A stretch of 43,335 bases of DNA. Origin: a virus. The notes under the pieces are model-generated. The model saw only the letters and a list, made by a program, of their open reading frames with translations. It was not told the DNA's origin and made no database searches. Where the stretch lies: the IMG/VR virus record IMGVR_UViG_3300045988_056175; one strand, written 5' to 3'. The position numbers and the translations under genes are program-made. Of this stretch, positions 5,353 through 21,912 are shown piece by piece; position 1 is the stretch's first letter, and every line of letters starts with the position of its first letter.

Positions 5353-5385
5353 ATTTCCACTTTGTATCTTGAATGGGGGATTTCT

Positions 5386-6048
5386 ATGTGGTTCTTTGAC
5401 CTTTTCAAAAAAAGGCGAAAAGAAGCCGTTCTGAATGAATTAGAAAAAGCTGATGACCTTGGTTCTATTGCAAAAATACTCGCTGAAAATGATTTGATTT
5501 CGCCAACGGACGATGCTCACAATTCGTTTGGTGACGATTTAAACCACTTGACCGAATCTGGGGATTTACCTTTCGGGTGGGTAGCTTATAATTCCGAGTT
5601 TACAGAGCGGCAGGAAAAGCGAATTGATTCAAAATGGAACGCTGTTGCTTCTGCTTCTTCAGCATCAGCGAAACTCAGCGCATTCAATGAATACTTCGAT
5701 ACTGTATCGAAGGTCGGAAAAGTATGTAAAAGAGCCGGAGAATGCCACTATAAATGGTTCTGCGAAGACATTATTGATTCTCAATGGTATAACGACCAAT
5801 TAGCAAAATATGAACGTTTCAAGGCCGAAGCCCCCGCTTTAATTAGACGTGATGAATTGCTGCCAACGCTTGAAGCTGACGTAATGCGCAAGTTACAAGA
5901 TTGTCACGGAATCTTGCAATCCGATTTTCTCAAACTATTTGACCCGGTTATAAAAAAGGATATTTCTGAGTTTTTATATAATGCAGAAAAAGCAGGAAGA
6001 ATAAAGAGAACTAAATCTGGGCGAAGTTACATCATTGAACTGAAATAA
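5386..6048 (+). CDS. Accessory (moron) protein of unknown function, 220 aa
   Basis: ATG at 5386 after GGGGGA; the TTG start in the track has no RBS. The gene is AT-rich: I counted 21 G+C in 5401-5460. It has its own promoter and terminator. The C-terminus looks winged-helix-like (ISEFLYNAEKAGRIKRTKSGRSYIIEL). Confidence 0.7.
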   Translation: MWFFDLFKKRRKEAVLNELEKADDLGSIAKILAENDLISPTDDAHNSFGDDLNHLTESGDLPFGWVAYNSEFTERQEKRIDSKWNAVASASSASAKLSAFNEYFDTVSKVGKVCKRAGECHYKWFCEDIIDSQWYNDQLAKYERFKAEAPALIRRDELLPTLEADVMRKLQDCHGILQSDFLKLFDPVIKKDISEFLYNAEKAGRIKRTKSGRSYIIELK

Positions 6049-6389: not shown

Positions 6390-6415
6390 ATCGGCAATCT
6401 AAGGAGGTGTTCCAA

Positions 6416-6739
6416 ATGGCAAACTATTCAGAAGCCAGGAAAACTGCAAACAAGAACTGGGACAGCAAAAACCTTGACAGAATCTCTATTGCACTCCCAA
6501 AGGGAGGCAAGGATGCGCTGAAAGCCCATGCGGAAAAGAACGGGGAAAGCGTGAACTCGTTTATCAAGCGGGCAATCGAAGAAGTGACAGAAATGGACAA
6601 TATGCACACGGCATACCAGCGGGGGCTTCTCCGTCAGCTCGAAAAAATGAATGATGCGCTAGGCCGGAATGAAACGCAGGAACTTCAGAGGATTCTACTG
6701 GGACTGATAGAGGATACAAAAGCAGATATCTCTGGTTGA
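6416..6739 (+). CDS. Ribbon-helix-helix (Arc/CopG-like) DNA-binding protein
   Basis: ATG at 6416 lies 8 nt after AGGAGG. The RHH pattern is LDRISIALPKGGKDALKAHAEKNGESVNSFIKRAIEE. Confidence 0.75.
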   Translation: MANYSEARKTANKNWDSKNLDRISIALPKGGKDALKAHAEKNGESVNSFIKRAIEEVTEMDNMHTAYQRGLLRQLEKMNDALGRNETQELQRILLGLIEDTKADISG

Positions 6740-6777: not shown

Positions 6778-8823
6778 TTATATCCCTATTACATACCGCA
6801 GTACATAGGCGGCATTATTGTAAGTTACCCCGTTTGCCGTTCCGGTGTCATCGTTCCCGTCATTTCCGGCTATGGTGGTGTCGTTTATATACAGGTACTT
6901 CGTGGCCACCATGCTGAAATTTACCGTGTTCATTCGGAAGGAAGAACCCACGCCTGGCTTCAGTGCTACAAATGCCCGATGAACGAAAAACGAATTGTAA
7001 TTGTGTTCTGCCGCTCCATTGTCATACCGGCTGAATACCAGCACAATGCCGGACGGCTGCTTGCTGATTGCCTCTGCCAGGGTGATTTTGTGGCCTCCGG
7101 TCATATATAAAGCACCTTCCCATAGTATCTTCCCGCCGCCGTTGTAGACCGTTTTCCAGTCTCCCCAAGTGCCGGTGTAATAGCAGCGCTCATATATTGC
7201 CCCGCTTGGCTTGGATGCAATATGGAAAATCTGTGACCGCTGGCCCCCGTTCCCTTCCCGCAAAACGACCAGGCTTCCGGTAGAAGTCCCAGGATAAGGC
7301 CTATTGAGCAGTGTTCCGGAGATTGCCGTTGATGGGACAGCATAAAAGCCAGGATCAAGAATCGTGTCGAAATCCTGGCCTTCTGTCAGATAGGTCACAG
7401 AAGCCGGTGCTTCCCCGTGTGAGAAAAAAACAGGAAGCCCGAATTCCACCCCTTCCGCCAACTCAGACACTTTGCCGAAGGCCACGGCCCGGCCGGAAGC
7501 ATTGAAGTCCAGCAGCGTGAACGCCGTGGGAATCTCTACCGTTTTCCGGATGGTGGTGAAATAATCGGTAACGGATAGCCGAATTTCATAGGCGGAATCC
7601 ACGTCAAACAGGGAATCCGTGGTGACGGTGGTGTTCAGGGTGTACTCCGTCCCGGCCTGTATTTTCGTCCATGTTGTTCCGGACTTCGCCTTATATTCCA
7701 GTGTGTAGGCACTGGAATTTTTGTTCCCCACCGGAGCGACAGCAAAAGTACACGCAATTTTTGCGTGTTGCCCGTCATAGTTTTCCGTCCCGTCCTCCAA
7801 GGACCGGACAGCGTTCAAAACGCTGATGGTAGGCGCAGTATAGGCCACTACGGAAAATGTCCGTGTGGACTTCGCAGTGCGCCCACGACTATCTGTTACG
7901 GTGACGGTTACGGTTTTGTTACCATTTGACAATGTGCCGGTGGTAGGCGTGGCCCCGGAATAGCTTTTCCCGTCCACCGTGGTTTTGTATGTCTTGATGG
8001 TGGAGCCATAAGCCCCGGCTGCTGTAATGCTGATTTTGACCTTTGACTTGCCCTGGACAAATGCCCCGAACTTTTCGCCCAGTCCCGCAACTGTTTCCGA
8101 AATGGAAACTGCTGAAATTGTCGGCACGACAGAGGCCGGAACTTTTGCGGTGAACGATACGGATTTTGTACCTACAAGGGTACTCCCGTTATAGGTTTTA
8201 CAGGTGATTGTGCAGGTCCCGGAAGTGCCGGATGGAATTTGGCTTGCCAGGGAAAGCGGGACCGTCCATGCCTTGCTTGTCCCCAAATCCGTGCCTATGG
8301 TCCCGGTAGCCTTGCCGAAGGTGTAGGTCAGGGCATGGTCAAAGCTGCCGGAGGCCCTGGGCATATTGATAGTGATGCTTGCGCCCATGTTGACGCTGCT
8401 GGCCGACAGCGTTGGCGTGGTAGCCCGTGGAATGGTGTCAAAAGTACCGCTGCCGGATGCGGTCACGTCCCCGTAGTATGTGCCGCCAAGGGTGACTTTT
8501 ATGCCAATGGTGGACGCAAAAGCGCAGGTTTTTGACCCGTCCGCATTGTGGCCCACGGTAACGGTCTTTGTGTACAGGGTCTTTGTCTGGTTGCCGGAAA
8601 GAGCCGCAGAGAAAGAAAACGTGTACTTCGTCCCGTTGATAGTCAGACTGCCGCTTTTGCTGGCCGTGGAATTGATTGTGTAGCTTGCACCGGTAGAAAC
8701 AAGCTGCACCTTCACCGTGACGCTGGAATTGTTGTTCGCCACGGACTGGCTTCCAACTGTCCAAACGATTTTCATTTGATAGCCTGTCCGAATTGCCTTT
8801 GTAATCGTTCCAGTTTTCGCCAT
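6778..8823 (-). CDS. Tail fiber / receptor-binding protein B
   Basis: 681 aa from the ATG at 8823, just after the Tal-B stop. The N-terminal half is homologous to RBP-A (TIPRA, SGTCTITCKTYNGST). The C-terminal domain is distinct (ILWEG...GIVLVFSRYDNG...YVLRYVIGI). It is the last gene of the late operon. Confidence 0.8.
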   Translation of the reverse strand: MAKTGTITKAIRTGYQMKIVWTVGSQSVANNNSSVTVKVQLVSTGASYTINSTASKSGSLTINGTKYTFSFSAALSGNQTKTLYTKTVTVGHNADGSKTCAFASTIGIKVTLGGTYYGDVTASGSGTFDTIPRATTPTLSASSVNMGASITINMPRASGSFDHALTYTFGKATGTIGTDLGTSKAWTVPLSLASQIPSGTSGTCTITCKTYNGSTLVGTKSVSFTAKVPASVVPTISAVSISETVAGLGEKFGAFVQGKSKVKISITAAGAYGSTIKTYKTTVDGKSYSGATPTTGTLSNGNKTVTVTVTDSRGRTAKSTRTFSVVAYTAPTISVLNAVRSLEDGTENYDGQHAKIACTFAVAPVGNKNSSAYTLEYKAKSGTTWTKIQAGTEYTLNTTVTTDSLFDVDSAYEIRLSVTDYFTTIRKTVEIPTAFTLLDFNASGRAVAFGKVSELAEGVEFGLPVFFSHGEAPASVTYLTEGQDFDTILDPGFYAVPSTAISGTLLNRPYPGTSTGSLVVLREGNGGQRSQIFHIASKPSGAIYERCYYTGTWGDWKTVYNGGGKILWEGALYMTGGHKITLAEAISKQPSGIVLVFSRYDNGAAEHNYNSFFVHRAFVALKPGVGSSFRMNTVNFSMVATKYLYINDTTIAGNDGNDDTGTANGVTYNNAAYVLRYVIGI

Positions 8824-8824
8824 A

Positions 8825-10435
8825 TCAACCACCCACCTTCTTGAAACTCAAATTGTTATTTGCCCTCGGAATGAAAGCAAAGTTTCCAAGCTGAAGGGAA
8901 TGGAGAAAATGGCCGTCTGTCACATACAGCTTATTGTCGGAGAAATAAGCCACTTCAACAGCGTCCTGAAGGAAGGATATGCGGTTATTGCTGATTTTCA
9001 GTTCCAGTTCATTGCCGATTTGGCCCAAAAGAATGGAGCCGTCCACAAAGCGGATATATTTCCGGATTTCCTCAAACTCTGCGTCCGTGCCATTTGCCAG
9101 GGCTTCCAGGTCTGTATTGAATTGGGTGAACTGAATATCCACGCTTTCCTTTGTCTGCGTGATGTCCGTTTGCACAGAGGAAACCAAAGCATCCGTATCT
9201 TCCTTCAGATAGTAGTTTTCTGCCACTGTGGATTTGATATTGTCCGCAGACGCTTTGACGGATGCAAGCAAATTCTGCTCTACGTTGTACAGGGCCTCAG
9301 AAGCCGTTTTCTCGACATTTTCTATTCCAAGTGTAATTTCACGTTGGGCGTTAGAAACGCCAGCCAGCGCACCGGACAGGCTTGACAGCGTACCGCCTAA
9401 CGTCAACGTGTTTTTCCCTGGTTCCAGAAGATTGATTGACAGCTTGGACACAAGAAAATTCTGGTCTATCCCGTGCGGTTTGCTCTCCACCCGGACATAA
9501 GTGCCAAGATGGAAGCCGGAGAAGGAAGCGCCAACGGTGGCCAGGTCTGCCGCTGAAAGGTCGATGGTTTCCGGGAAGTTGACAAGGCCGGAAAGATATG
9601 CTTTGCCCTTCGTCAAAAGGTTTGTGGGGTCTGCTACATCGTCCCAGACCTGGGACTTGCAGATAAACCCATACCGGGAAACGGCATCCGGGTCAGTGAT
9701 ATAATCCAGGCCGTCATTGACGGAGGCCACCGTCAGCCGTTCGCCCGTGTCCTTGCCTTCCTCGTCCTGCAATTTGGCTCCTAAAGGTATCAGAGCGGTG
9801 GCAATGTCAGCCCCTTTTCGGATGCGCTTCAGATCAAGGAGGTTCTGCCCAAAGGTGACCTTCTGGGGGGAAAGCAGCGTGAAGTCCTGAAGATAGTCCA
9901 GGTAATTCACGCCGTTTTCATACCGGACTACCAGATAGCCGCCCAGGAGGTCCAGAAGTTTCTTTTGCAGTTCCTCCCAGGTGTTCACGTAGTCGATACT
10001 TGCCCGGACGATATAATCATTTGGGTCTGATACGGTCACATTCCCAAGGGTAAACTGTTTTCCTGTCTCTACATGGGCGTTGTGGCTTGCCAGTCTGCCT
10101 GTGAGGTATTCTTCAATGCTCCCGGTGAAATCATAGGGGGATTGAATAGAATCCAGCAGAAAGGCCAGGGAGCCTTCACAGACAATGCGCTTTTCGTTGC
10201 GGAATCCAAGTTCTTCTTCCAGTACCCGTCCACGGAAAAGCAAATAGTCATCCTGATAGACTGTGATGATGGATTTCAGCTTTTGAATATGGCTGTATTG
10301 TGGATGCTGGGGATAAAGTGTGAATTGGAAGCTGCCGGTCTTGTTCAGTTCCAATTCTAAAGAGGGGTTAAAAATCTGAAGATTTTCCAGCTTGCTGTTA
10401 TACAGCGTCAGACCGTCACAATATACACGATACAC
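8825..10435 (-). CDS. Tail-tip protein Tal-B (prophage-tail endopeptidase-like family)
   Basis: 536 aa with a GTG start after GGGGGGTGG. It is colinear with and homologous to Tal-A (for example LFRGR and GGY motifs), and follows Dit-B. Confidence 0.75.
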   Translation of the reverse strand: MYRVYCDGLTLYNSKLENLQIFNPSLELELNKTGSFQFTLYPQHPQYSHIQKLKSIITVYQDDYLLFRGRVLEEELGFRNEKRIVCEGSLAFLLDSIQSPYDFTGSIEEYLTGRLASHNAHVETGKQFTLGNVTVSDPNDYIVRASIDYVNTWEELQKKLLDLLGGYLVVRYENGVNYLDYLQDFTLLSPQKVTFGQNLLDLKRIRKGADIATALIPLGAKLQDEEGKDTGERLTVASVNDGLDYITDPDAVSRYGFICKSQVWDDVADPTNLLTKGKAYLSGLVNFPETIDLSAADLATVGASFSGFHLGTYVRVESKPHGIDQNFLVSKLSINLLEPGKNTLTLGGTLSSLSGALAGVSNAQREITLGIENVEKTASEALYNVEQNLLASVKASADNIKSTVAENYYLKEDTDALVSSVQTDITQTKESVDIQFTQFNTDLEALANGTDAEFEEIRKYIRFVDGSILLGQIGNELELKISNNRISFLQDAVEVAYFSDNKLYVTDGHFLHSLQLGNFAFIPRANNNLSFKKVGG

Positions 10436-10448
10436 GGAACCACCCCCC

Positions 10449-11096
10449 TTACAAAGATGCTTCCTGATAGGAAAACATGATACTGCCGGTCCCGTTGACA
10501 GAAACGGTATTGTCTCCGGCCTTCAATTCCAGTTCCGGCAGGGTATAGGAACCGCTGCCCAGGTCCCAGATATTGCTTGCCTCAAAGACAATGTGCAGGG
10601 AGGTGTCGGTTGTGACCGTCACCTCCGGCACAACACGTTTCCGGAGATTAGGCAGTGTAACGGCGGTTTCTCCGTTTATGGCTTTTGTGACGGCGGTTTT
10701 CACCGTCTTGTATTTCCAGGGGTCACAGTCAGCGTCAACGGATATGGTTCCCACGCCTCTAGCATTTGTAAGGCTGGAAACATAGCACCGCCCCATATAG
10801 AAAAAGCCCGGATCATCGTCAAGGACAATCCGGAGCCTTTTCCCATGGATGGCGTTTTTGATGGTTGAATAAAGGGTAAGGAATTCGCTTTGTGGCACAA
10901 TGGTGGAAAACTTGAATTTGTGGGTCACGTCCTCATACTTCGGTTCCCCGAAGTATTCTGTGAGGTCAAGGGCGCTGTCTGCTCCCTCCACATCAATCTT
11001 CACGGTTTTCACGCTTGGGGCTGCAATTTCTTTTTCTCCCAAAATCAAGCTAAAATCTCTATAGCTATGATATTGGCCAAAAGTAATTCCTTTCAT
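10449..11096 (-). CDS. Distal tail protein Dit-B
   Basis: 215 aa with a GGGAGG RBS. It shares GKRLRIVLDDDPG and the C-terminal QEASL with Dit-A. Confidence 0.75.
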   Translation of the reverse strand: MKGITFGQYHSYRDFSLILGEKEIAAPSVKTVKIDVEGADSALDLTEYFGEPKYEDVTHKFKFSTIVPQSEFLTLYSTIKNAIHGKRLRIVLDDDPGFFYMGRCYVSSLTNARGVGTISVDADCDPWKYKTVKTAVTKAINGETAVTLPNLRKRVVPEVTVTTDTSLHIVFEASNIWDLGSGSYTLPELELKAGDNTVSVNGTGSIMFSYQEASL

Positions 11097-11110
11097 GGCT
11101 TACCTCCCTG

Positions 11111-12079
11111 TTAGGGCATAAGCTGATTTACACGGGCCTGGACCGCATCGGCATCATATCCGGCAGCGGTGAGCCGCTTTTCACGCTCTGCGCCGTTGCC
11201 CCAGTCTCCACGGATTACCTCACGGGCGATTTCGTCCAGGGACTTGGTGGGCTGGGAAGTGCTGGGAATACGGATTTTCTGGCCGGTATAAATCACATTC
11301 GGGTTGGCAATGCCGTTGTACTCTGCCAGGGCCTTGTAGGTAGTGCCATATTTGGCGGCAATGCCGGACAGGGTATCCCCGGTTTGCACCGTGTACACGG
11401 TCTCAGGCGTTGCCACAGGGGCGGAGGGCTTGGGCGTGGTGGTTTCACCGGCAGCGGCAAAGCCGTTCTTCCCGGCCTCCCGGACCATGGAAGGATAGTC
11501 CAGATATCCCCAGTTGCAGTCAACGCTTCCGGTCACGCCGGGGACGATGCCGGTGCTGGTGTACTGCCAGATTCCGTATTGACGTTCATCTTCGCAGACT
11601 TTGTAATACTGGGCCACCCATCTGGCCTTGGTGTCATACCAGCTATCGGTCAAATAGGTATTCCACCAATGCAGATTGGCGTAAATACCGGCCCAATAGC
11701 CAGCCGCTTCAATGACTTCCACCCACTTCATGGCCTGTTCCAGAATATGGCCTTTCCCAATAGCGGCAACTTTGGCATCCTCCAAATCCAGATAGACCGG
11801 ATACTCCGGCTTCAGGCCCTTCAGCAAACGCAGGGTGTGCTTTGCTTCGGATGCTGCCTTTTCCACACTGTCGGCGTAGCTGTAGATGTACACGCCGAAG
11901 GGGATTCCCAACCGGGTACACTCTGTCACATTTCGGGCGAAATGTTCATCATCCTGGTCCGCCAAGTCCATGCCGTAGCCGCAGCGCAGGATTGCAAATT
12001 TCACACCTGCATTTTTTGCCTGCTCCCAGTCAATTTTTCCCTGCCAGGTCGATACGTCAATCCCGAATTGCTTTTCCAT
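11111..12079 (-). CDS. Endolysin: GH25 muramidase + LysM + Cpl-7-like repeat
   Basis: GH25 N-terminus GIDVSTWQGKIDWEQAKNAGVKFAILRCGYG. LysM segment YTVQTGDTLSGIAAKYGTTYKALAEYNGI. C-terminal GDWGNGAEREKRLTAAGYDADAVQARVN resembles the Cpl-7 motif. There is no signal peptide. Confidence 0.9.
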   Translation of the reverse strand: MEKQFGIDVSTWQGKIDWEQAKNAGVKFAILRCGYGMDLADQDDEHFARNVTECTRLGIPFGVYIYSYADSVEKAASEAKHTLRLLKGLKPEYPVYLDLEDAKVAAIGKGHILEQAMKWVEVIEAAGYWAGIYANLHWWNTYLTDSWYDTKARWVAQYYKVCEDERQYGIWQYTSTGIVPGVTGSVDCNWGYLDYPSMVREAGKNGFAAAGETTTPKPSAPVATPETVYTVQTGDTLSGIAAKYGTTYKALAEYNGIANPNVIYTGQKIRIPSTSQPTKSLDEIAREVIRGDWGNGAEREKRLTAAGYDADAVQARVNQLMP

Positions 12080-12103
12080 GATAGATACCTCCTAAAAAGT
12101 TGT

Positions 12104-13840
12104 TTATGTTATGCGTTTCCACATATAAACCGCCAAATATGGCGGCATATTGTTGTGAGCAGACCCGCCGCCAGTTGGCAAAATCGTGGAACCGTCCGTG
12201 TAGCCCTGCGTTTTGATTGCAAAATTGCCGATGGTCGTCCGGCTTTGCCCGTAATCATCCGTTCCCCCGTTGACGGCTGCGCTGTGCGTATGGCTGGGCA
12301 TTTCCGCCGTTGTCAGCTTGTGGGTGGCTTCGCCGCCGGTCGCCCCGGCGGAATATCTGTCCCCAGCCGCCAGAAGAAAGCGGTCTTTCAGCCGCTCCCA
12401 GGTCCCACCGAACAGGTCCGCCGGGTCAGTGTCAGCCAAAGACATATAGATGGAGCCAACCGGGTAAATTCGGCTGAGAATGTTTTCACCGTTCAGCAGG
12501 AGCGGGACGTTGAAATTAAAGTCGTTTTTGCCCCAGTCGAACACCGGAATGCCCTGCATGATAACCACGTCTACCGTCACGGTTGCCAGCTTGTCCGTCA
12601 CTTCCAGGCGGATGGTGTGTTCTTGCCGATAGTCCAGGCCGGTGAGATCAAGTGTGGCCGTGTAGGTGTTATCCGTGATTACCGGTGTAGCCGTTACCCA
12701 GGCCAAATCACCCACACGGTAGCGCAGGGCCAGCGTATTGTCTACAGCACCAAAGCCACCGCTGTAATACTGCCCGGATAATTCAATCCGCCCAGAGCCG
12801 TCAGTGGGCTGTGGGCGGTATCCTCTGGCATTGAGCGTCAGACGCACGTAAGGGATTACCGTGGGAACCACGGTTGCGCTTTTGGCATAGCCACGGGAAT
12901 CCACGGCGTAGAACTGGAACCGGGTCGCTTCCACCTCCGGGATGCTGTAGGTACTCCCGGAAACATCCACACCCATGATCTGCTTCTTGGCCAGGGATGC
13001 ACTATTCCGGGCCGCTGCCGAAATTGTACATAGTGCAGTAGAGTAAAACCGAACCAGTTTGCTGCTGTCCCCGGTCAGGGCAATAGTTGTCTGGTTGGTG
13101 TCCACCACCGTGCCGGAAACATCCGGAGCGCAGGTGTCAAGGGACGTTTGAGCCGAAAAAGTCGTGCTTTGTGCGTCTCCTATTTGAGTGCTGCCGGAAT
13201 AGGTACGGCATATCAGCGTACAAGTCCCACTTCTGGAATTTGGAATCTGCCCGTAGAAAGACGCTGGGAGCGTCACAAGAATGGTAGTTTCCGTCATTTT
13301 TACGGGACTGGAAACCATATTCCCGGAGCCGTCAATATACCCGGAAAGCGAACCGAAGATGTACTGAATCGTGTGGGTGAACCCGGAGGATTTCCGGCCC
13401 ACCACAATGGTGGTTTTGCTGCCGATGACGGCATCCGTGGCCCCGATGCTGGAAGCCCGTGGAATGGTGGGCAGCGTGATCGACTGCTCCCCGGAAATCG
13501 TGCTGATATACTTTCCGCCGTAGGTGATGTTCAAGCGGTAACTGCCGCCGATTTTCCCGGACCAGGTTCCATCCGAATTGTGGGCTACGCTGAATCTGTG
13601 TGAACCCAGGGCCACCGTGCCGCCGCTGGAATAAATGTCCGGTCCGGTCCACTTGAACGTCTGCCCACCAATCCAAAGTGAACAGTCATCCGTACCGGCT
13701 CCAACGGATAGGCCACCGTGGTGGAGTGATAAGGACACGTCTACCGGCGTGGTATTGGATGCAATGTCATACTGGCCCACGGTGTAGTTGACAGTGAGAT
13801 AAAGGCCCGATACACCGGATGAAATATCAAAAGATGGCAT
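12104..13840 (-). CDS. Tail fiber / receptor-binding protein A (C-terminal tail-collar type domain)
   Basis: 578 aa. The N-terminal half is homologous to RBP-B (TIPRA, SGTCTLICRTYSGST). The C-terminus (GGEATHKLTTAEMPSHTH...GGGSAHNNMPPYLAVYMWKR) matches the phage tail-collar/MdpB pattern. Confidence 0.8.
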   Translation of the reverse strand: MPSFDISSGVSGLYLTVNYTVGQYDIASNTTPVDVSLSLHHGGLSVGAGTDDCSLWIGGQTFKWTGPDIYSSGGTVALGSHRFSVAHNSDGTWSGKIGGSYRLNITYGGKYISTISGEQSITLPTIPRASSIGATDAVIGSKTTIVVGRKSSGFTHTIQYIFGSLSGYIDGSGNMVSSPVKMTETTILVTLPASFYGQIPNSRSGTCTLICRTYSGSTQIGDAQSTTFSAQTSLDTCAPDVSGTVVDTNQTTIALTGDSSKLVRFYSTALCTISAAARNSASLAKKQIMGVDVSGSTYSIPEVEATRFQFYAVDSRGYAKSATVVPTVIPYVRLTLNARGYRPQPTDGSGRIELSGQYYSGGFGAVDNTLALRYRVGDLAWVTATPVITDNTYTATLDLTGLDYRQEHTIRLEVTDKLATVTVDVVIMQGIPVFDWGKNDFNFNVPLLLNGENILSRIYPVGSIYMSLADTDPADLFGGTWERLKDRFLLAAGDRYSAGATGGEATHKLTTAEMPSHTHSAAVNGGTDDYGQSRTTIGNFAIKTQGYTDGSTILPTGGGSAHNNMPPYLAVYMWKRIT

Positions 13841-15426
13841 CAGTTATCACCTCCAACGTAGAAACAGGCCGTCCGTTTTTCCGGGTAGTCCTCAAACCGG
13901 GCGTGTTTCCCGATTATCAGATAGTTATTGACCTTAACATCCGTGGCAACTACGCCGTCCTTGTCCGCCTGAAGCATGATTTCATCACCACGTTTGACAT
14001 ACATACCCTGGTGGTTCATAAGGTTTTCGATTTCCTCGCCGGACCGCTGGATATGCAAGCCGTCATCGGAAAATTTATACCCCATGGACGTGGTGACTTT
14101 ATCCACGCCGTCCTGTTCGATTTTGGATACCCGGATGGTAACATCCTCGGCGGTCTGCTGGATTTGGGTCAGCTGCTCCTTCATTTTTTCATTGTCCTGC
14201 TGTACTTTGGACACTTCCAGCATGATTGTCTCACTTGTCTGCTGGATCAGGGAGGTCAGCCGGGTTTCCGTGCCGGAAATCTGTTCTTTATTCTTCTCAT
14301 AATCCTTCCGGGCATCGTGTTCCACTTTGTCCAGGGCGTTGGAATTATGCTTGTCATCCGCAGCCGTGCCGCCGGTCAGCGTGGTAAGGGATTTCCCAAG
14401 TGTGACGGTATCATTTGCGGGGTTCAGCAGGTCATAGTCCCGCTCCATCAGCAGATAATCGTCATCGACTTTGTGGGCCTTGCTGATAACGTGTACCTGG
14501 TCCCCCACGGAGAAGGTATCAATATCTTTGTCCAATGCGGAAAGGTCAATCGCCGAAAGGCTTAACTGGGTCGTAATCAGCTTTGCTTTGGACAGATACG
14601 CAATGGCCTTCTTCAAGAGGTTATCCGGTTTGGTCACATCGTCCCAGGTCTTGGTTTTGGCAATCCGGCCCCGGTATGCTATGGCATCGTCCACCTGGAT
14701 ATAATCTTTCCCATCGTTGACGCTGGCAATGGTCACCCGCTCCCCGGTATCTTCGTCCCTGGCTCCATACGGGACCAGGACAGTGGCCAGGTCAGGGGTA
14801 TTCCCATCGTCACGGGCAAAATCCAGCAGATTTTCCCCCAGTTCAATGGCCTGGGTGCTGTAATGGGTCAGTTCCGCATACCAGTTCACGGTTCGGATAC
14901 CGTCCGCATTGGTTTCAAAGACGATATACCCGCCGCAGCGGTCCACCAGTTTGTTGATGGCATCCGCAACAGACCCGGCATTTTCCGCTTCCATGCGGAC
15001 GAAATTGTTATCGTCCGTGACTGTTACCGTGCCAACGGCAAACTGCTTCCATTTGTCCACCTGCTCATTGTAAATCCGGATAATGTCGGCAAAAATGGTC
15101 TGTGGGTCAGTCTGGTACAGATAGGGCCTCATGACGGCATCCTGGAAGAAACAGCGTTCGCTTTCGCAGGTGATCGTCCTGCTGCCATAAAAGTCATCCG
15201 AAGGATACAGCGCACGGCCCCGGAAAATCAGTTCCCCGTCCCGGTAGATTTCCACCAGCGTTTTCAGGCTCACGAACTTGCTATAGGCGGGGTGTGTCAG
15301 CGGTATCTGGATGGTGGCAGAGCCGCCGCTTTCCGCTTTCACACTGGCCGTCAGTTCCAGCAGTTCGTAACCTTCCAAGCGGTTATCATACACAAGGGCA
15401 TTGTCAGCGTAGACTTGTACAATCAC
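13840..15426 (-). CDS. Tail-tip protein Tal-A
   Basis: A GTG at 15426 overlaps the Dit-A TGA (GTGA) and lies 5 nt after GGGAGGGG. This start aligns with the Tal-B N-terminus. The track ATG at 15444 is an alternative. Confidence 0.75.
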   Translation of the reverse strand: MIVQVYADNALVYDNRLEGYELLELTASVKAESGGSATIQIPLTHPAYSKFVSLKTLVEIYRDGELIFRGRALYPSDDFYGSRTITCESERCFFQDAVMRPYLYQTDPQTIFADIIRIYNEQVDKWKQFAVGTVTVTDDNNFVRMEAENAGSVADAINKLVDRCGGYIVFETNADGIRTVNWYAELTHYSTQAIELGENLLDFARDDGNTPDLATVLVPYGARDEDTGERVTIASVNDGKDYIQVDDAIAYRGRIAKTKTWDDVTKPDNLLKKAIAYLSKAKLITTQLSLSAIDLSALDKDIDTFSVGDQVHVISKAHKVDDDYLLMERDYDLLNPANDTVTLGKSLTTLTGGTAADDKHNSNALDKVEHDARKDYEKNKEQISGTETRLTSLIQQTSETIMLEVSKVQQDNEKMKEQLTQIQQTAEDVTIRVSKIEQDGVDKVTTSMGYKFSDDGLHIQRSGEEIENLMNHQGMYVKRGDEIMLQADKDGVVATDVKVNNYLIIGKHARFEDYPEKRTACFYVGGDN

Positions 15427-16070
15427 AAAGACCCCTCCCGCCATGAGATGGTAATGGTTCCGGTTCCTTCGGCGGTTTTCGCCTGAATCACCTGGTCACC
15501 CTGCATCAGCAGGGCCGGAAGAAGGTGGGTTCCCTCAGAAATAGAACTGCTGTATTCGCCCCATTGCAGCGTTGTGTCCTGGCCAACGGTGATTTTCGGC
15601 ACAAGAGGCATAGCACCAATCGGGCAGGAAATCGCCGTGAATTCCGTGCCGATGCTCTTGCTCATCACTGTTTCCTGGTCTCTGCGCTTATACGGAGCGC
15701 AGGTGGCTTCTACGGTGATTTGGTGGTACAACTTATCGCTTTTATGCCCGGATACCGTAATGCGCCCGTCATAGTACCACCCCGGATCATCGTCCAGGGT
15801 GATATGCAGTCGCTTCCCGTTCAGGGCGTTGCTGACTTCACTGCGCTTTTCTACCCAGTCATCACCGGGGAAAAGGGAGAACACCCACGTGATTTTCCGG
15901 TCATTGAAGGTCACAAGGCCCAGGGCCTCGGTCAGGTCCACAGAGCCGTTCCCATACGGGATTTCCACAAGGTTTTTCTTCGGCTCTGCGGGATCAATTT
16001 GAATGCTTTCCGGGACAAGGTGCAAATCCGTCCTAGAATGAATCTCTCCGAAATAAGTATCTATCAGCAT
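15423..16070 (-). CDS. Distal tail protein Dit-A
   Basis: 215 aa. Its ATG overlaps the TMP-2 stop (TAATG). It contains GKRLHITLDDDPG and ends in REGSL. Confidence 0.75.
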   Translation of the reverse strand: MLIDTYFGEIHSRTDLHLVPESIQIDPAEPKKNLVEIPYGNGSVDLTEALGLVTFNDRKITWVFSLFPGDDWVEKRSEVSNALNGKRLHITLDDDPGWYYDGRITVSGHKSDKLYHQITVEATCAPYKRRDQETVMSKSIGTEFTAISCPIGAMPLVPKITVGQDTTLQWGEYSSSISEGTHLLPALLMQGDQVIQAKTAEGTGTITISWREGSL

Positions 16071-18217
16071 TACGCCCTCGCTTTCTGCGCCCGGATTTTA
16101 CCCAGTCGCACGTCCATAGGATTTGCCAATGCGCCAACCAGCGCACCGGTGTCCAGCGTGATACCCATGCCGGAAATAACAATCAGCTGGTCCAGAATGT
16201 CCTGAAGGACCGCCACCACAGCAGAACCGGAGCCGCCCATAGCGTTGTCCATGTCCTCTGCCACGGCGTGAATCCACTTTTTGTTCTGGTGCAGCGGAAC
16301 CACGGCTTCAGCGCCGTTGCCTTCCAGGAAGCCGGTCTGGCCCTTTTCCAGAATGCCGCCCTGTTCCAGTTCGGGAATTTCGGCAATGCTGAAGCCCTTG
16401 CCGCCAACAACGGGAACCCAATTCGGAATCTTGATCCGGTTAATTCCACGGATAAAGGCGTTGATTCCGTCAATAATCCAGTTGATCGGGATTTTGAATG
16501 CCGTCTTGATCCCCTCCCAAATGGAGGAAAAAATATTCTTGATTCCATCCCAGGCAGCTTCCCAGTCACCTGTGAACACGCCCTTGATAAACTGAATCAA
16601 TCCGGAAAATACGCCCTTGATGGTGTCGATGCGGCTCATTATCAGCTCAACCGCAGCGGAAACCGTGTTCGACATTACATCAGACAGAATCGTCCACCAG
16701 TTTTTCAGCGGCACAAGCGCCACCTGAATCAGCTGGGAAATAATGGAAATCAACGGCGTTATCAGGTCAGAAATCAGCGTAGCAATCGGTTCCAGGACCG
16801 CCACCACAAGGTCAAGAATTGGCTGAAGCAACTCTATCAGCGGGGTCAGCAGGTCAAGAATCGGCTGCAACAGGGCCAGCAAGGGCGGCAGCAGCGTTTG
16901 AACGATTTGGATGATTGGCGGCAACAGCGTTTGAATCAGCTGCACGATTACAGGCATCAGCGCAGTAATCAGCTGGGTAATGACCGGCATAATTGCGTTG
17001 AACATATCCATCAGCAGTGGCAGAATATCCGCTGCAAGCTGCAACAGAGGCGGAAGAATGGTGTCAAACAGTGTTGCCATAACCGGCGCAATCTGGTCCA
17101 TCATGCTTTCAATCAGCGGCATATTATCAACAACGATCTGTATGGCCTTTTCTACCACCGGCATCAGCTTTTCACCGATGGAAATTATTATGTTTTCCAG
17201 TTTGTTCTTCAGCTTTTGCGTTCTCTCCGCCATGGTATCCGCCATGGTGGAATAGGCCGTTTCGGTGGCCCCTGAAGAATCCGCCATGGCCTGAATGCTG
17301 CTTGTCAGGTCATCCGTATTGGAGGCCAGCACGTTTGCCGCCTTGGCTGCTTCTGCACTGCCGAACATATCCCCCAGCGCAACGCCGGATTCATTTGCAG
17401 CACTTTGCAGAACTGCCAGCACATCAGAAAGCGAACTGCCGGATTCCATTAGTTCAGAGAAGGATTTTCCGGTTTTCTCTTTTAGCACGTCAGAAGCAGT
17501 CGTTCCGGATTTACCCAGTTCGTTCAGCATACTGTTCATGTACGTGGTGGTTTCTGCCGTGGCAATACCGTTTTTGGTCATCACAGCATAGGAGCCGCAA
17601 AGGGTATCAATGTCAACGCTAAAGGCCTTCGCCGTGGGGATAACTCGGCCCATGGCAGAGGCCAATTCGTTAACGGTGGTTTTACCAAGGTTCTGGGTAG
17701 TAATCAGCTTGTCAGAAATGGACGTTGCAGCATCGGCATCCAGCCCGTAAGCGTTGATTGCCGTGGTCAGCACGTCCACGGCGGTGGCCGCATCCGTAAA
17801 ACCGCCCTTTGCCAATTTAATGGCCTGGGCCGTGAAGTCTACGGCATCCGCCTGATCTACGGATGCGGAAATGGCAGAATAGACAGCTTCGGAAAAGTCC
17901 TCCACGGCAACGCCTGTTTCGTTCGATGCGGCCTTTATGTCGTTGAAATAAGCATCCGTATTCGTTCCGGCTGCAAGTAGGGTGTTCACCTTTGCAAAGG
18001 CGGTTTCTGCTTTGGATGCAGCATCTACACACGCCTGTCCAAAATCAGCAATGGCCTTTACCGACATATAGGTGACCACTGCCGTTCCAACCCTTTTGAG
18101 GGCGCCCACGATGGTATTGCCGGATTTCTTTGCATTGGTCGAGACTTTATCTATATCGGAATTCGCCTTGTCAGCACCGTTCACGGCGATGGTGCCTAAA
18201 ATCTTAAAAAGTTCCAA
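16070..18217 (-). CDS. Tape measure protein 2 (715 aa)
   Basis: TTG start 7 nt after GAGGTG. The N-terminal third matches the TP901-type tape-measure core as I recall it (KLAKGGFTDAATAVDVLTTAINAYGL, TVNELASAMGRVIPTA). It also has an 11-residue-period hydrophobic repeat region and a C-terminal LDTGALVGAL motif. Confidence 0.88.
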   Translation of the reverse strand: MELFKILGTIAVNGADKANSDIDKVSTNAKKSGNTIVGALKRVGTAVVTYMSVKAIADFGQACVDAASKAETAFAKVNTLLAAGTNTDAYFNDIKAASNETGVAVEDFSEAVYSAISASVDQADAVDFTAQAIKLAKGGFTDAATAVDVLTTAINAYGLDADAATSISDKLITTQNLGKTTVNELASAMGRVIPTAKAFSVDIDTLCGSYAVMTKNGIATAETTTYMNSMLNELGKSGTTASDVLKEKTGKSFSELMESGSSLSDVLAVLQSAANESGVALGDMFGSAEAAKAANVLASNTDDLTSSIQAMADSSGATETAYSTMADTMAERTQKLKNKLENIIISIGEKLMPVVEKAIQIVVDNMPLIESMMDQIAPVMATLFDTILPPLLQLAADILPLLMDMFNAIMPVITQLITALMPVIVQLIQTLLPPIIQIVQTLLPPLLALLQPILDLLTPLIELLQPILDLVVAVLEPIATLISDLITPLISIISQLIQVALVPLKNWWTILSDVMSNTVSAAVELIMSRIDTIKGVFSGLIQFIKGVFTGDWEAAWDGIKNIFSSIWEGIKTAFKIPINWIIDGINAFIRGINRIKIPNWVPVVGGKGFSIAEIPELEQGGILEKGQTGFLEGNGAEAVVPLHQNKKWIHAVAEDMDNAMGGSGSAVVAVLQDILDQLIVISGMGITLDTGALVGALANPMDVRLGKIRAQKARA
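16703..17167 (-). repeat. About 13 tandem 11-residue repeats inside TMP-2
   Basis: ILPPLLQLAAD / ILPLLMDMFNA / IMPVITQLITA / LMPVIVQLIQT / LLPPIIQIVQT / LLPPLLALLQP / ILDLLTPLIEL / LQPILDLVVAV / LEPIATLISDL / ITPLISIISQL. The periodicity is read directly from the translation. Confidence 0.8.
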
Positions 18218-18240
18218 TGGCCTTCACCTCTTTCTGTGAA

Positions 18241-18274
18241 GATAAAAGAAAAGAAGGCCACCGGGATGGCCTTC
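18241..18274 (-). terminator. Terminator-like hairpin between the two tape-measure genes
   Basis: Minus strand: GAAGGCCA-tcccgg-TGGCCTTC followed by TTTTCTTTTATC. It starts at the TMP-1 stop codon. Confidence 0.6.
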
Positions 18275-20013
18275 TAACGTGTGTTGCCTCGCTGGGCATG
18301 ATTCCATCTATCGGATAATTGCGTGTCAATGGACGGCACAAGAGCGCCCACAAGCGCACCGGAATCAAGCTGCACGTCCTGAGGGATGGAACGGCCCAGG
18401 AAATCAATCAAAAGCCGGATTTGCTCAATGATGGTTTCCCGAATGCCCTCATTTTCCTTCCGGACTGCATCCCGGACATAGCCTTGCAGCACATCAATGG
18501 GGGCAATGGCTTCTTTCCCGGCCTCGCCGCCGCCCAGATAGGTGTCCCCGGTTCGCCCGAAGATGGTGGCCCGGTCCAGGATACCGCCCTCTGCATTCCA
18601 TTTGACATTGAAAGAGGGCAGCTTGCCCTTCCCGGCAATTCCAAACGGTGCTTTGCCACCGCTCACGGAGATTTTGGGAATTTTCAGATTGCTGAAGATT
18701 TTGCCGATTTTCAGGGGGAAGAAGCCTTTGACCTTATCAACAAATCCCTTGACGGCATCCTTCGCACCGTTGATTTTGTCGGATACAGCGTCTTTGATGT
18801 TGCCGAAAGTTTCCTTGACCTTCCCAACGGCATCCTTCAGTTCGCCGATTTTCTTCTTAATCCACTTTACAGCGGTTCCCGTTGCAGACTGGATTTTGTC
18901 CCACATCTTCAGCCAGAAATTGCGGAATCCCTCGTTGTTTTTCCAGAGGTACACAAACGCCGCCGCAAGCCCCAGAATCAAAGAAACGATAAGCCCTATA
19001 AGATTGGCCCTCATGGCTACATTTAACGCTTTCACGCCCACGGTGACCAGTTTCAGGGCCTTTGCGGCTTTGCTCATGATTGCAGACCATTTTAGCACCA
19101 GCACAAAGCCGGAAACTGTCACGGTTGCCGCCAGTATTCCAGCGGCCCAGGCTTGCACGGTGCTTTTGTTCTGCTTGAACCACTTAATCATATCCTTGAT
19201 TTTTGCGATAAAGACTTCCAGCTTTGGCACGGCAGCGGATACCATTTCAGCGGCTTTATTCTTGATAGCTGTCAAAATCGGTTCTCCGACACGGCCCAAT
19301 TCCGCAAAGGCCCCTGTCAGCTTTTCATTGGCTCTATTTGCGGCCATAACGTCCTTATTGGTTTCCTTATACCGGTCAGACGCTTTCTTGTACACGCCGT
19401 TCAGGGTGTCCATAATTAGCTTTTGCCGTTCCTGTTCCCCGGAGCATTTGGCCAGCTTTTCGTTGAATTCATCTTCAGAAATACCGGCCCAGTTCAGGGC
19501 ATCCGCCAGGGGGCCAGTGACCTGGCCAACCTTTGCGGTTTCGTTTGCCGCCTCGGTCAGTCCCTCAATGGGGAGCGAATCGCCGAAGGTGGCAAAAACG
19601 CCGGTGCAAATATCCGTCCAGGTCTGCAAATCCTTTTCGTTGTCCGTCATAACGGCCAAGTGGTTCGCAGCTTCCACGGATACGTCCGTATCTCCAAGGA
19701 CAGCTTGCAAATCCTGATAGGTTTTCTTTGCGGCCTCGGAAGAATGGCCGTTTGTCTGGAAAGCCGTATCCAGCTTTCCCATTTCCGTCCGGTACTCCCT
19801 GGAACCTTCAATGGCAGCGATCCATGCACCGCCAAGGGCAGCACCGGCAGTAAATACGGCTTTACCGATTTTTACGGCAGATTCTCCGATTTTCTTAAAA
19901 GCGGAATCTGCCTTTTTGCTGCCGGAATCCGCCTTTGTGGTGGTTTCGTCAATAGCCTTTTGGGCCTGTGCATTGTCAATGGCAATCGTGCCAAGCAGCT
20001 TGAATAATTCCAT
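18274..20013 (-). CDS. Tape measure protein 1 (579 aa)
   Basis: ATG 8 nt after GAGGGGG. The N-terminus MELFKLLGTIAIDN parallels TMP-2. It has central transmembrane-like helices (ILAATVTVSGFVLVL, LIGLIVSLILGLAAAFVYLW) and a C-terminal LDSGALVGAL motif. It directly follows the tail chaperones. Confidence 0.85.
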   Translation of the reverse strand: MELFKLLGTIAIDNAQAQKAIDETTTKADSGSKKADSAFKKIGESAVKIGKAVFTAGAALGGAWIAAIEGSREYRTEMGKLDTAFQTNGHSSEAAKKTYQDLQAVLGDTDVSVEAANHLAVMTDNEKDLQTWTDICTGVFATFGDSLPIEGLTEAANETAKVGQVTGPLADALNWAGISEDEFNEKLAKCSGEQERQKLIMDTLNGVYKKASDRYKETNKDVMAANRANEKLTGAFAELGRVGEPILTAIKNKAAEMVSAAVPKLEVFIAKIKDMIKWFKQNKSTVQAWAAGILAATVTVSGFVLVLKWSAIMSKAAKALKLVTVGVKALNVAMRANLIGLIVSLILGLAAAFVYLWKNNEGFRNFWLKMWDKIQSATGTAVKWIKKKIGELKDAVGKVKETFGNIKDAVSDKINGAKDAVKGFVDKVKGFFPLKIGKIFSNLKIPKISVSGGKAPFGIAGKGKLPSFNVKWNAEGGILDRATIFGRTGDTYLGGGEAGKEAIAPIDVLQGYVRDAVRKENEGIRETIIEQIRLLIDFLGRSIPQDVQLDSGALVGALVPSIDTQLSDRWNHAQRGNTR

Positions 20014-20072
20014 AGGAATACCCCCTCAACAGAAATGTTTTAGGGGCTGCAAATCAGATACCTAAAGCCCGG

Positions 20073-20417
20073 TCACGTTGTGGCATTGTGACCGGGCTTG
20101 TTGCTGGGGAACAGGCGCTTCAGGAGGTTGTCAATGTCGGCTTTGGTCATATCGTCATCCCGCTTCCGGGACCGTGCTGGCCGTTCCGGTTCCACAGGGC
20201 TTAATACTTCCGCTTTCCAGTCATTGAAGGACATATCAGAATAACTATGGACATACATATTCCACAGCTTTTCTTCGTCCTCTTTTTCTGCCTGTTCCTT
20301 CCGTCTCTTGTTCTCGGAGGCGATGATCTCACCGACCCACTCGCCAAACCGCCCTTGTTCGATGTACAGGCGCATGAATTCCATGGGATTGCTATACCGG
20401 GAGTACAGCAAATCCAT
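20073..20417 (-). CDS. Tail assembly chaperone, T-extension (probably made as a G-T fusion by -1 frameshift)
   Basis: Its frame is -1 relative to the upstream chaperone ORF and stays open upstream through the slippery site. An internal ATG at 20417 also exists. Confidence 0.7.
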   Translation of the reverse strand: MDLLYSRYSNPMEFMRLYIEQGRFGEWVGEIIASENKRRKEQAEKEDEEKLWNMYVHSYSDMSFNDWKAEVLSPVEPERPARSRKRDDDMTKADIDNLLKRLFPSNKPGHNATT

Positions 20418-20434
20418 GAATTCAAACTCACCGA

Positions 20435-20869
20435 TTAAAGCAATTTGGCAAGCACCTTGAAAAAACTGGTGTTCTTCACCTCGCTGAAGGAATCATAGAT
20501 CATCATGGGCAGGGTGCCGAATTCCATTTCCTTGATTTCATCCGCCGGAATACCGGACAGAGAAGAATAGAACTGGTAGACAGCCTCTCCGGCATCCCCT
20601 TCCAGGTGGGAAATCATAACGTCACCAACACTCAGCAGAGCGTTAATGCCGATTTCCCGAATATCGCCGCCGTTCGCCACAGCAGTGATAACGTCCTTGA
20701 AGTCTTTCAGTCCCAGCTTGCGGAACAGCCCCAGCAGCGGGAACAGGTCCCCGTCCTTCAGCTTTCGCAGGGTGTAGGGCCGTGCAACGGTTTCCTCCGC
20801 TGCTTCAGTTGCCGTGATTTCCTCGGTTACTTCAGTTACCGCTTTGGTGTTCTTCTCGGTGTTTTCCAT
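20435..20869 (-). CDS. Tail assembly chaperone (gpG-like)
   Basis: 144 aa and acidic. It sits between the major tail protein and the TMP genes and carries the slippery site near its 3' end. Confidence 0.75.
   Translation of the reverse strand: MENTEKNTKAVTEVTEEITATEAAEETVARPYTLRKLKDGDLFPLLGLFRKLGLKDFKDVITAVANGGDIREIGINALLSVGDVMISHLEGDAGEAVYQFYSSLSGIPADEIKEMEFGTLPMMIYDSFSEVKNTSFFKVLAKLL
20459..20465 (-). promoter_or_regulatory. Programmed -1 frameshift slippery heptamer T_TTT_TTC
   Basis: In the zero frame of the G chaperone the sequence reads AGT TTT TTC AAG, 8 codons before its stop. Shifting -1 reads through into the 20073-20417 frame with no stop codon. Confidence 0.75.
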
Positions 20870-20891
20870 TTTGCTTTAACCTCTTTCTGGC

Positions 20892-21518
20892 TTATTCAGC
20901 CCGTTTGTCAATGTCGGCAGTCTGGACAGCAGTCCAGCCCTTGGCCTTACGAAGGAACAGCGCATAGGGCAGTTTCTCCACGCCGTAGGTAATATCCGAC
21001 TGGCATTCAAAAGTCCCGGTGAACTTGGTGTTCTCTTTGTTCTTGCTCTCCGTGGCAAAGCCGGAAGTGCAAAGCGCATTTTTGAACAGGCAGATAAAGG
21101 GCCGACCGTCCAGCAGTTCGCCGTAATAGCCGAAGCCCTCATAGAAATGGCCGCTTCTCAGTTCACTGGAAGTCACCACATCATAGTTCTTATCGGTGGA
21201 ATCATTGATTTCGCCGATAACGGAATGCGCCATATACTCGGCAGACAGTTCCACCATGGAGGTTTCCAGGGTGGCAGTCTCGCCGACCTTCTGCTGAAGT
21301 TCCTTCACTGCCACCAGTGCGCCGTCAAGGTCAGGGGCAAAGAATTCCGGGGTAATGGTCAGCTTGCCGCCCTCCTGGGTTGCGCCGATGATAGCGGCCT
21401 TGATTGCTTCCTCCGTGGGTGCAACCTTTTCATCATAGGTCACACCCTGAAAGAATACGCCAGCACCAAAGGCAATCTTTGCCGGAGTGCCGGAAGTAAT
21501 ACCGGTTTTAATGGACAT
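20892..21518 (-). CDS. Major tail protein
   Basis: 208 aa. Its position is immediately upstream of the chaperone pair and downstream of the tail completion genes. Confidence 0.72.
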   Translation of the reverse strand: MSIKTGITSGTPAKIAFGAGVFFQGVTYDEKVAPTEEAIKAAIIGATQEGGKLTITPEFFAPDLDGALVAVKELQQKVGETATLETSMVELSAEYMAHSVIGEINDSTDKNYDVVTSSELRSGHFYEGFGYYGELLDGRPFICLFKNALCTSGFATESKNKENTKFTGTFECQSDITYGVEKLPYALFLRKAKGWTAVQTADIDKRAE

Positions 21519-21519
21519 A

Positions 21520-21912
21520 TTATTTCACGCTCCATTCTTGTACTGACAGATTGATTTGGATGCTTTTCAGTTCTGCATCCTCTTTCGGAATAACAAGGGC
21601 GTTATCGTAAAAAACGATCACGGCGGAACCATCGTCCGCCATGACCGTTTTCCCCGAAACCTTGTTGAAATAGTTCTCGATCTTGGCCTTTGCCGCCTCC
21701 AACTGCTCCCACGTTCCCCGGTGGAAGCCGGTCAGCATGACGGTGGATTCCTGAAGGCCGTTTTCGTACAGCGGCGGCGTTTCCGTGTATTCACCCACAA
21801 AGTAGGGATACACGATTTCCCCGGCAGCATTGCCACGGTACACACCAAAGCCGTACTCAATCCCCAGGGCATCCATGGCATCAGCGATGATTTGTAATGG
21901 TTTACTGGTCAT
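21520..21912 (-). CDS. Tail completion / tail terminator protein
   Basis: 130 aa. The call rests on synteny within the connector module. Confidence 0.6.
   Translation of the reverse strand: MTSKPLQIIADAMDALGIEYGFGVYRGNAAGEIVYPYFVGEYTETPPLYENGLQESTVMLTGFHRGTWEQLEAAKAKIENYFNKVSGKTVMADDGSAVIVFYDNALVIPKEDAELKSIQINLSVQEWSVK

Follow-up and report, generated by a model that had tools for sequence, protein, structure and literature searches.

Organization of the tail locus

The viral contig analyzed here, IMG/VR record IMGVR_UViG_3300045988_056175 (hereafter, the window, meaning the whole stretch of 43,335 nucleotides), encodes two tape measure proteins (TMP1 and TMP2) and two sets of siphovirus tail-tip proteins, A and B, each consisting of a Dit, a Tal and a receptor-binding protein (RBP). 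The nine genes are nested in the order TMP1, TMP2, Dit-A, Tal-A, RBP-A, endolysin, Dit-B, Tal-B, RBP-B and, like the tube gene and the two small ORFs that precede them, lie on the minus strand. The window is a closed contig representing a genome of ~43.2 kb, with an exact 119-nt direct repeat at its ends (positions 1–119 are the same as 43217–43335), as expected for a circularly closed assembly.

The duplicated sets are preceded by the sole copy, in the open reading frame (ORF) map, of the gene for the major tail (tube) protein (20892–21518; phrog_885 major tail protein, E = 2.4e-35) and by a single set of two small ORFs of 144 and 114 amino acids (aa) (20073–20869), located between the tube gene and TMP1, that are assigned to the tail assembly chaperone position by their place only and gave no informative match in searches with hidden Markov models. 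TMP1 (18274–20013; 579 aa) is separated from TMP2 (16070–18217; 715 aa, TTG start) by a 56-nt spacer with a terminator-like hairpin (18242–18275; 10-bp stem, 4-nt loop and T-run). The start of Dit-A (15423–16070) overlaps the TMP2 stop, and is followed by the gene for the hub protein Tal-A (13840–15444), by RBP-A (12104–13840) and by the endolysin (11111–12079; GH25, LysM and CW_7 domains), which ends the inner module. The outer module resumes with Dit-B (10449–11096), the hub protein Tal-B (8825–10435) and RBP-B (6778–8832), beyond which the lysogeny genes start on the opposite strand. Thus, Dit-A comes immediately after TMP2, and Dit-B lies 7.2 kb downstream of TMP1, its putative partner. 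Within each cassette, neighboring genes overlap or directly adjoin one another, as they would in a single late operon. There is one tube gene, one chaperone-position pair and one lysin (no second lysin was found in the window); all other genes outside the duplicated sets, which include those for the portal, scaffold and capsid, are single-copy as well.

All nine ORFs proved to be uninterrupted, as an earlier reading of the sequence (the original prediction) had stated, and two of the starts call for comment. The longest Tal-A ORF begins at an ATG at 15444 (534 aa); the alignment with Tal-B begins at residue 8, which fits the predicted GTG at ~15426 (528 aa), the probable start. The 681 aa predicted for RBP-B correspond to an internal ATG, the longest ORF having 684 aa from a GTG at 8832.

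Two sets of diverged paralogs

Both ORFs are assigned as tape measures, TMP2 on strong family matches and TMP1 on its position together with less clear-cut ones. TMP2 matches Pfam PhageMin_Tail with 106.8 bits (E = 1.7e-30; cut-off 33.2) and phrog_991 with E = 5e-110. TMP1 matches the TMP families phrog_991 (5.6e-31) and phrog_58 (2.9e-26); its top PHROG match is an unnamed family, and its score against Pfam TMP_3, 17.4 bits, is under the cut-off of 41. Residues 13–276 of TMP1 are homologous to part of the sole protein in the TMP position of phages nd12 and NatCom_11578, and the gene has the position of a tape measure, following the tube gene (phrog_885) and the two small ORFs. Both Tal proteins possess an N-terminal Prophage_tail (PF06605, gp27-like) domain (84.5 bits for Tal-A and 63.1 bits for Tal-B; cut-off 31.3), match phrog_3558 (1.6e-102 and 1.4e-130, respectively) and are encoded directly after a Dit gene. 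RBP-A matches Pfam DUF859 (1.3e-32) and Gp10_C (3e-22), the latter forming a collar-like C-terminal domain; RBP-B matches DUF859 (7e-60) and has a different C-terminal domain, with a match to the tail fiber family phrog_7389 at residues 568–667. We presume that the two are receptor binders, given their position, the DUF859 and tail PHROG matches, the Gp10_C domain, and the C-terminal swaps among close relatives described below.

Dit-A and Dit-B both match phrog_33 (7.8e-16 and 8.1e-17), and Dit-A was assigned through this match and its identity to Dit-B. By its matches in a fold search, an AlphaFold2 model of Dit-B (predicted local distance difference test score 79) has the Dit fold, which is defined by an N-terminal tube-like domain and a C-terminal beta-sandwich domain; its top PDB matches are the Dits of SPP1 (2x8k, E = 1e-8), NF5, monocin, TP901-1, 80alpha and p2; the ten best matches are all siphovirus or monocin tail-tip or baseplate chains (E from 1e-8 to 2e-4). 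The template modeling scores are low (~0.4), probably owing to a different domain orientation. When Dit-B, Tal-B, RBP-A and RBP-B were compared with PDB entries by sequence, no matches emerged.

In BLASTP comparisons, Dit-A and Dit-B are 34% identical (E = 1e-35), Tal-A and Tal-B 30% (E = 2e-72), and RBP-A and RBP-B 26% over the N-terminal ~450 aa (E = 2e-25), and the two tape measures are alike only at their ends (29% identity over the first 115 aa and 26% over the last 220 aa, with E = 1e-7 for either match). Judging from these alignments, the Dit, Tal, RBP and TMP pairs are true but old paralogs. The diverged pairs of the original prediction are thereby borne out, at 26–34% identity and with E values far beyond chance, as are the motifs on which it drew: MELFKLLGTIAIDN and MELFKILGTIAVNG at the TMP N-termini, LDSGALVGALVPSID and LDTGALVGALANPMD at the TMP C-termini, GKRL.I.LDDDPG in the Dit pair, TIPRA and SGTCT..C.TY.GST in the RBP pair, and HTH...NNMPPY and YVLRYVIGI in the RBP C-terminal parts. 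The two tape measures are not halves of a single split TMP: both match the same stretch of phrog_991 (240–884 and 241–912), and the N- and C-terminal motifs occur in both ORFs. Likewise, the TMP1/TMP2 spacers of relatives measure either 18–70 nt or ~500–720 nt, with no fixed frame, so that fusion of the two proteins by readthrough or frameshifting is excluded.

A family of gut phages with the nested layout

A scan of IMG/VR with TMP1 recovered 65 distinct loci with 59–99% TMP1 identity, onto which the nine window proteins were mapped. TMP1 is uninterrupted in all 65, and in 64 of these a second TMP-like ORF (537–928 aa) directly follows it; the remaining locus stops 492 nt past TMP1. Dit-B and Tal-B are present in all 39 IMG/VR loci with sufficient downstream DNA, with Dit-B starting 4.4–8.7 kb after TMP1, and RBP-B is present wherever the contigs of these 39 relatives extend far enough. 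The same gene order was observed in ENA and Logan assemblies of other samples, made with other assemblers. Thus, an assembly chimera is a very unlikely source of the double layout. Instead, this layout defines a large family of human-gut phages, as yet uncultured.

The TMP1 length is nearly constant among the 65 relatives (578–590 aa), TMP2 spanning the 537–928 aa given above. Dit-B is 54–94% identical across the 39 relatives, and the N-terminal ~470 aa of RBP-B are conserved, with a variable C-terminus. In the closest relative, L001, an extra ORF of 135 aa (21207–21614), missing from the window, lies between Tal-B and RBP-B, and similar ORFs of 135–140 aa occupy the same place in L023, L024 and L043.

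Among members of the TMP1 family with sufficient downstream DNA, no credible single-cassette relative, of the kind that the original prediction suggested looking for, came to light. Among 80 control contigs found with TMP2, 78 encode a single TMP of 830–1600 aa followed by one tip cassette, and the two exceptions are themselves members of the double-TMP family. The one candidate for a single-cassette variant, the 59-kb ENA contig L152, is identical to a normal family member through the inner module; exactly where Dit-B should start, a collagen-like protein and a P22-type portal take over (17507–21740). L152 was set aside because it carries two portal genes, for which reason it is probably a chimeric assembly; alternatively, it would be a real recombinant devoid of cassette B. 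NatCom phages with a seeming second Tal match turned out to have one TMP and one Dit only.

Megablast with 18 kb of the window against 50,697 deposited phage genomes gave no match, and protein-level searches matched only uncultured gut phages and generic TMPs, the double layout being found in no deposited cultured phage. A scan of bacterial genomes produced a single match, a Clostridia contig assembled from a metagenome, which is in fact this phage. Judging by the source samples and the distant NatCom relatives, the host is probably a member of the gut Clostridia.

Both modules bear the mark of purifying selection, with ratios of nonsynonymous to synonymous substitution rates (dN/dS) of 0.05–0.27, measured between the window and L001 unless more distant relatives are named. 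In the outer module, the values are 0.07 for TMP1, 0.16 for Dit-B and 0.12 for Tal-B, and in the inner block, 0.24 for Dit-A, 0.05 for Tal-A, 0.27 for RBP-A and 0.10 for the lysin. Against more distant relatives, TMP1 and cassette B yield 0.05–0.19. TMP1 values span 0.06–0.14 and Tal-B values 0.08–0.16.

Tape measure ends match their partners

The C-terminus of a tape measure sits in the tail-tip hub and its N-terminus at the head-proximal end, and the two ends of the tape measures of this family follow different partners. The C-terminus of TMP1 always conforms to the pattern LDSGxLVG...RGNTR (class I; LDSGALVG...RGNTR in the window, where TMP2 also has a class I C-terminus), and cassette B is always of class I. 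Across TMP2 variants, a class I C-terminus goes with a class I inner Dit/Tal pair in 20 of 20 cases, plus one class I case missed by the search pattern, and C-termini of at least three other motifs go with inner cassettes of other classes in 33 of 33, for an overall 53/54 by motif. The same rule holds in an unrelated set of single-TMP phages, where class I C-termini accompany class I Dit/Tal in 7/7 and other C-termini accompany other cassettes in 52/52 (59/59). Since the C-terminal class tracks the Dit/Tal class and the C-terminus sits in the hub, the pattern places TMP1 with cassette B, although distant, and TMP2 with cassette A, its neighbor. Consistently, the pairwise divergence of TMP1 correlates with that of Dit-B (Spearman rho 0.78) and Tal-B (0.66), compared with 0.43 for the adjacent tube gene. 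On these grounds, we assign TMP1 with Dit-B/Tal-B and TMP2 with Dit-A/Tal-A as the cognate pairs.

The N-terminal motif M-E-L-F-K-L-L-G-T-I-A is found in all TMP1 and almost all TMP2 variants. Among single-TMP phages, it accompanies tube/chaperone genes related to those of the family in 3 of 4 cases, versus 1 of 59. Because the motif tracks the tube/chaperone genes, both tape measures appear to be fitted to the single shared tube/chaperone set.

The inner module is repeatedly exchanged

Whereas the family conserves TMP1 and Dit-B/Tal-B/RBP-B, the content between them is highly variable. Every inner block comprises a TMP, a phrog_33 Dit, a protein resembling Tal and fiber-like proteins, these being of several unrelated classes: in some, as in the window, the inner Tal belongs to phrog_3558, and in others, phrog_538 Tal proteins accompany a Dit of 261–293 aa. 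The process is visible at short range in L001, in which the DNA of the region is 94–96% identical to the window save for two stretches. In one of these, the middle of TMP2 (~aa 19–595) has been replaced and is now 34% identical, the first 19 aa and the last ~120 aa staying with their flanks, such that the last 120 aa of TMP2 were left with Dit-A/Tal-A; in the other (12179–12395 of the window), the C-terminal part of RBP-A has been replaced. Moreover, the sole lysin ends the inner block of the window, and relatives carry a holin and lysin in the head module, an arrangement that fits a conventional TMP-to-lysin block acquired from another phage; a search for the donor found Tal-A only in the two closest relatives. 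Judging from these replacements, the inner slot is refilled again and again by recombination with modules of other phages. The nesting of a TMP2-to-lysin block between TMP1 and its cognate Dit-B set, one of the two explanations offered in the original prediction, stands and can be extended: rather than a one-off insertion in a single genome, it is a family-wide layout with a slot that has been exchanged repeatedly.

In some relatives, a reverse-strand gene is found between TMP1 and TMP2, where the spacer measures ~500–720 nt (L031, 5981–6448, minus strand; L039, 11768–12487, minus strand). The product is small, has a signal peptide or lipoprotein-like N-terminus and no PHROG match, and looks like a moron in the tail operon.

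The TMP1/TMP2 junction

The hairpin at the boundary of the two tape measures starts at the TMP1 stop codon. Hairpins were scored sequence by sequence, a MAFFT alignment of the spacers having misaligned those of diverged members. An equivalent hairpin is present in 27 of 34 distinct spacers of relatives, in 23 with a T-run; 11 of 1200 random windows scored as well as the junction hairpins. The hairpins have 13 different stem cores, so that the structure is conserved and the sequence is not. TMP2 begins with TTG in 16 of 27 contexts, compared with none of 25 for TMP1, and the TMP2 ribosome-binding region is base-paired in some minimum-free-energy folds. Speculatively, the junction may combine a partial terminator with a module boundary and lower the output of TMP2.

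In the window (18200–18260, minus strand), the 3′ arm of the hairpin and the T-run have an alternative pairing partner in the ribosome-binding region and TTG start of TMP2, and the 5′ arm sequence, GAAGGCCAT, is found again at the TMP2 start. In these folding models, the alternative pairing could constitute a switch between termination and translation masking.

Other genes of the genome

The only recombinase is a large serine integrase of 529 aa (3281–4870), ~2 kb past RBP-B. The gap between it and the tail genes is filled by a gene for a ribbon-helix-helix (CopG/Arc-like) protein (6407–6739, plus strand), located directly past RBP-B, and by a 228-aa ORF with no family match (5362–6048, plus strand). 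A holin-like ORF of 74 aa (phrog_297; 25351–25575, minus strand) lies in the head module, between the Mu_F-like and scaffold genes, far from the sole lysin; it is at this unusual spot that relatives have a holin and lysin pair (L149, 4008–4905; L152, 3866–4893). The Phage_Mu_F minor head protein (26046–27704, minus strand) contains, as a fusion partner, an exotoxin domain of the ADP-ribosyltransferase type (PF03496, 7e-26), and in relatives (L149, 266–3856) the same fusion is followed by an ADP-ribosylglycohydrolase gene. From these domains, the two proteins may represent a capsid-delivered effector and its antidote.

Two tails from one genome?

The textbook siphovirus has a single tape measure and a single hub and builds one kind of tail. 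We propose, with a probability of roughly one half, that the phages described here depart from this scheme, in that two complete tail-initiator modules, the outer TMP1 with Dit-B/Tal-B/RBP-B and the inner TMP2 with Dit-A/Tal-A/RBP-A (plus the lysin), would act on a shared tube to produce two tail types. Under this proposal, the shared N-terminal motif would serve the single tube, chaperone and terminator set; each tape measure would nucleate its own tip complex through a C-terminus of the class that fits the hub; and the shared tube protein would polymerize on both tip complexes. A single infection would then yield two virion types differing in the receptor-binding tip and in tail length. From lambda and TP901-1, tail length is established at 1.5 Å per TMP residue, a value at which the expected tails would measure ~87 nm (TMP1) and ~107 nm (TMP2). 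In relative L002 (10001–11650), TMP1 has a 29-aa in-frame deletion (550 versus 579 aa), equivalent at the same value to ~4.3 nm, or about one tube-ring rise, a change that would suit a ruler adjusted in units of one ring. Speculatively, tails of the variable module might be kept to a minority by the hairpin at the TMP1/TMP2 junction and by the TTG with which TMP2 often begins. In this fuller form, to which we commit slightly less readily, we would be dealing with a widespread, temperate human-gut siphovirus family with dimorphic virions, each burst comprising a majority of TMP1/Dit-B/Tal-B/RBP-B tails and a minority built from TMP2 and a swappable Dit/Tal/RBP set, which would differ in tail length and receptor.

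The computational evidence, namely, the match between TMP ends and partners, purifying selection on both sets, and the single tube/chaperone set, favors two tail types. Several considerations weigh against this proposal, foremost that the two-tail outcome is one we infer purely from the genes of an uncultured family. Linkage of adjacent genes could account for part of the link seen between TMP2 and the inner cassette. In the window, both modules are of class I, making cross-assembly possible. The conserved hairpin precedes both tip cassettes, the partner of TMP1 among them, which would be an odd way to control a ratio. TMP2 seems to be split in L034, L054 and L065, where the inner module may be either dispensable and decaying or affected by sequencing error. 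Finally, the L152 contig has TMP1 without cassette B, with two portal genes aboard.

One alternative is that, in a given situation, a single module builds the infectious tails, the other being a conditional or standby set that is expressed, for instance, by reading past the hairpin or under a host-dependent condition. The terminator-like hairpin conserved at the TMP1/TMP2 boundary would suit such an arrangement, as would the frequent TTG start of TMP2, never seen in TMP1, and its occasionally paired ribosome-binding region. However, full termination at a hairpin upstream of both cassettes would leave TMP1 without any hub; furthermore, neither flanking inverted repeats at either cassette nor an invertible segment or second promoter were found in the window, and the cassette genes overlap or abut like a single late operon, so we regard a standby set as unlikely. 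Still less can be said for a composite tip, with stacked Dit rings or a second hub on the first, through which every virion would display both binders. The modules do share an operon and a tube gene, and K1-5/SP6, CBA120 and phi92 are well-known examples of virions with several receptor binders. But such a tip would need no second tape measure, and a TMP2 of 537–928 aa cannot run alongside a TMP1 of ~579 aa as a single ruler. Each TMP C-terminus, moreover, fits a different hub class. With the Tal trimer capping the Dit ring, a second Dit/Tal has no known place to go, and to our knowledge, there is no solved siphovirus tip with two Dit or two Tal species. We consider the composite tip quite improbable.

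We attach little credence to the idea that one set is a non-functional passenger, recently acquired or decaying and kept by linkage, or that it has a non-virion role, such as phage exclusion or the formation of a headless tail-like particle. The frequent exchange of the inner module, its interruption in the three relatives and the moron-type genes for secreted proteins in the same slot of some relatives are what one would expect of a passenger, yet dozens of diverged genomes carry the two sets intact, with the low dN/dS values reported above, and the double layout is common to members down to 59% TMP1 identity. In addition, the presence of the family N-terminal motif on almost all TMP2 variants suggests selection to work with the resident tube/chaperone set. 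As for the merger of two related phage strains during assembly, the window is, to be sure, a metagenomic contig and the related L152 looks chimeric; nevertheless, the same nested order in 39 IMG/VR contigs, which come from many samples, as well as in the ENA and Logan assemblies, paralogs too diverged, at 26–34% identity, for a strain-level misjoin, the single-copy state of the other genes and the closure of the contig on itself make this explanation hardly conceivable.

Relation to known systems

In content and order, each of the two modules matches the canonical module of phages of Gram-positive bacteria, such as SPP1, TP901-1, p2 and 80alpha, in which chaperones are followed by TMP, Dit, Tal and RBP. 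These phages have one TMP and one tip set, whereas the family described here has two nested sets that share the tube gene and the chaperone-position pair. The proposed production, by one genome, of two particle types that differ in host range, deduced here from the genes, has a parallel in the G segment of Mu and the C segment of P1. In those phages, however, an invertase (Gin or Cin) acting on inverted repeats switches the fiber genes only, whereas in the window the whole TMP/Dit/Tal/RBP initiator is duplicated. A switch of the Gin/Cin type was rejected for the window, which has no flanking inverted repeats and no recombinase other than the large serine integrase. Phages K1-5/SP6, CBA120 and phi92 similarly encode more than one receptor-binding protein and attain a broader host range; they mount all binders on a single hub, whereas here the hub proteins and the tape measure are duplicated.

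The R/F pyocin locus of Pseudomonas aeruginosa, in which two co-regulated tails, each with its tape measure and tip, share one lysis cassette, is likewise comparable. Pyocins are headless, though, and their two sets, one contractile and one flexible, are unrelated, each being complete down to a tube gene of its own; the window, with one major tail gene plus portal, scaffold and capsid genes, is not a double tailocin locus of this type. The adhesion devices of lactococcal and streptococcal siphoviruses exchange whole Dit/Tal/RBP blocks, and also RBP C-terminal domains by themselves, as in the family studied here. In these phages, the incoming block replaces the resident one, whereas the present family keeps the resident and takes the incoming block into a second slot. 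In our comparison, none of these systems appears to duplicate TMP and hub within one phage tail operon. By phrase matching in the open-access literature, we found no description of two tape measures, two Dits or two tail types, an absence that is no proof.

If the two-tail proposal is correct, these phages would exemplify a new route to host-range breadth, one that acts on the entire tail tip and not just on the fiber, and the slot between TMP1 and Dit-B would serve as an evolutionary test bed for new hosts while the old host is kept. The family would also offer a natural system in which to study how the ends of a tape measure recognize their partners, the N-terminus following the tube/chaperone family and the C-terminus the hub class, and how tail length is set when two rulers compete for one tube protein. 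The variable slot suggests a tolerated insertion site for engineered tail tips, and, if two tails are indeed made, host prediction and engineering for phages of gut Clostridia would have to treat this family as one of two specificities.

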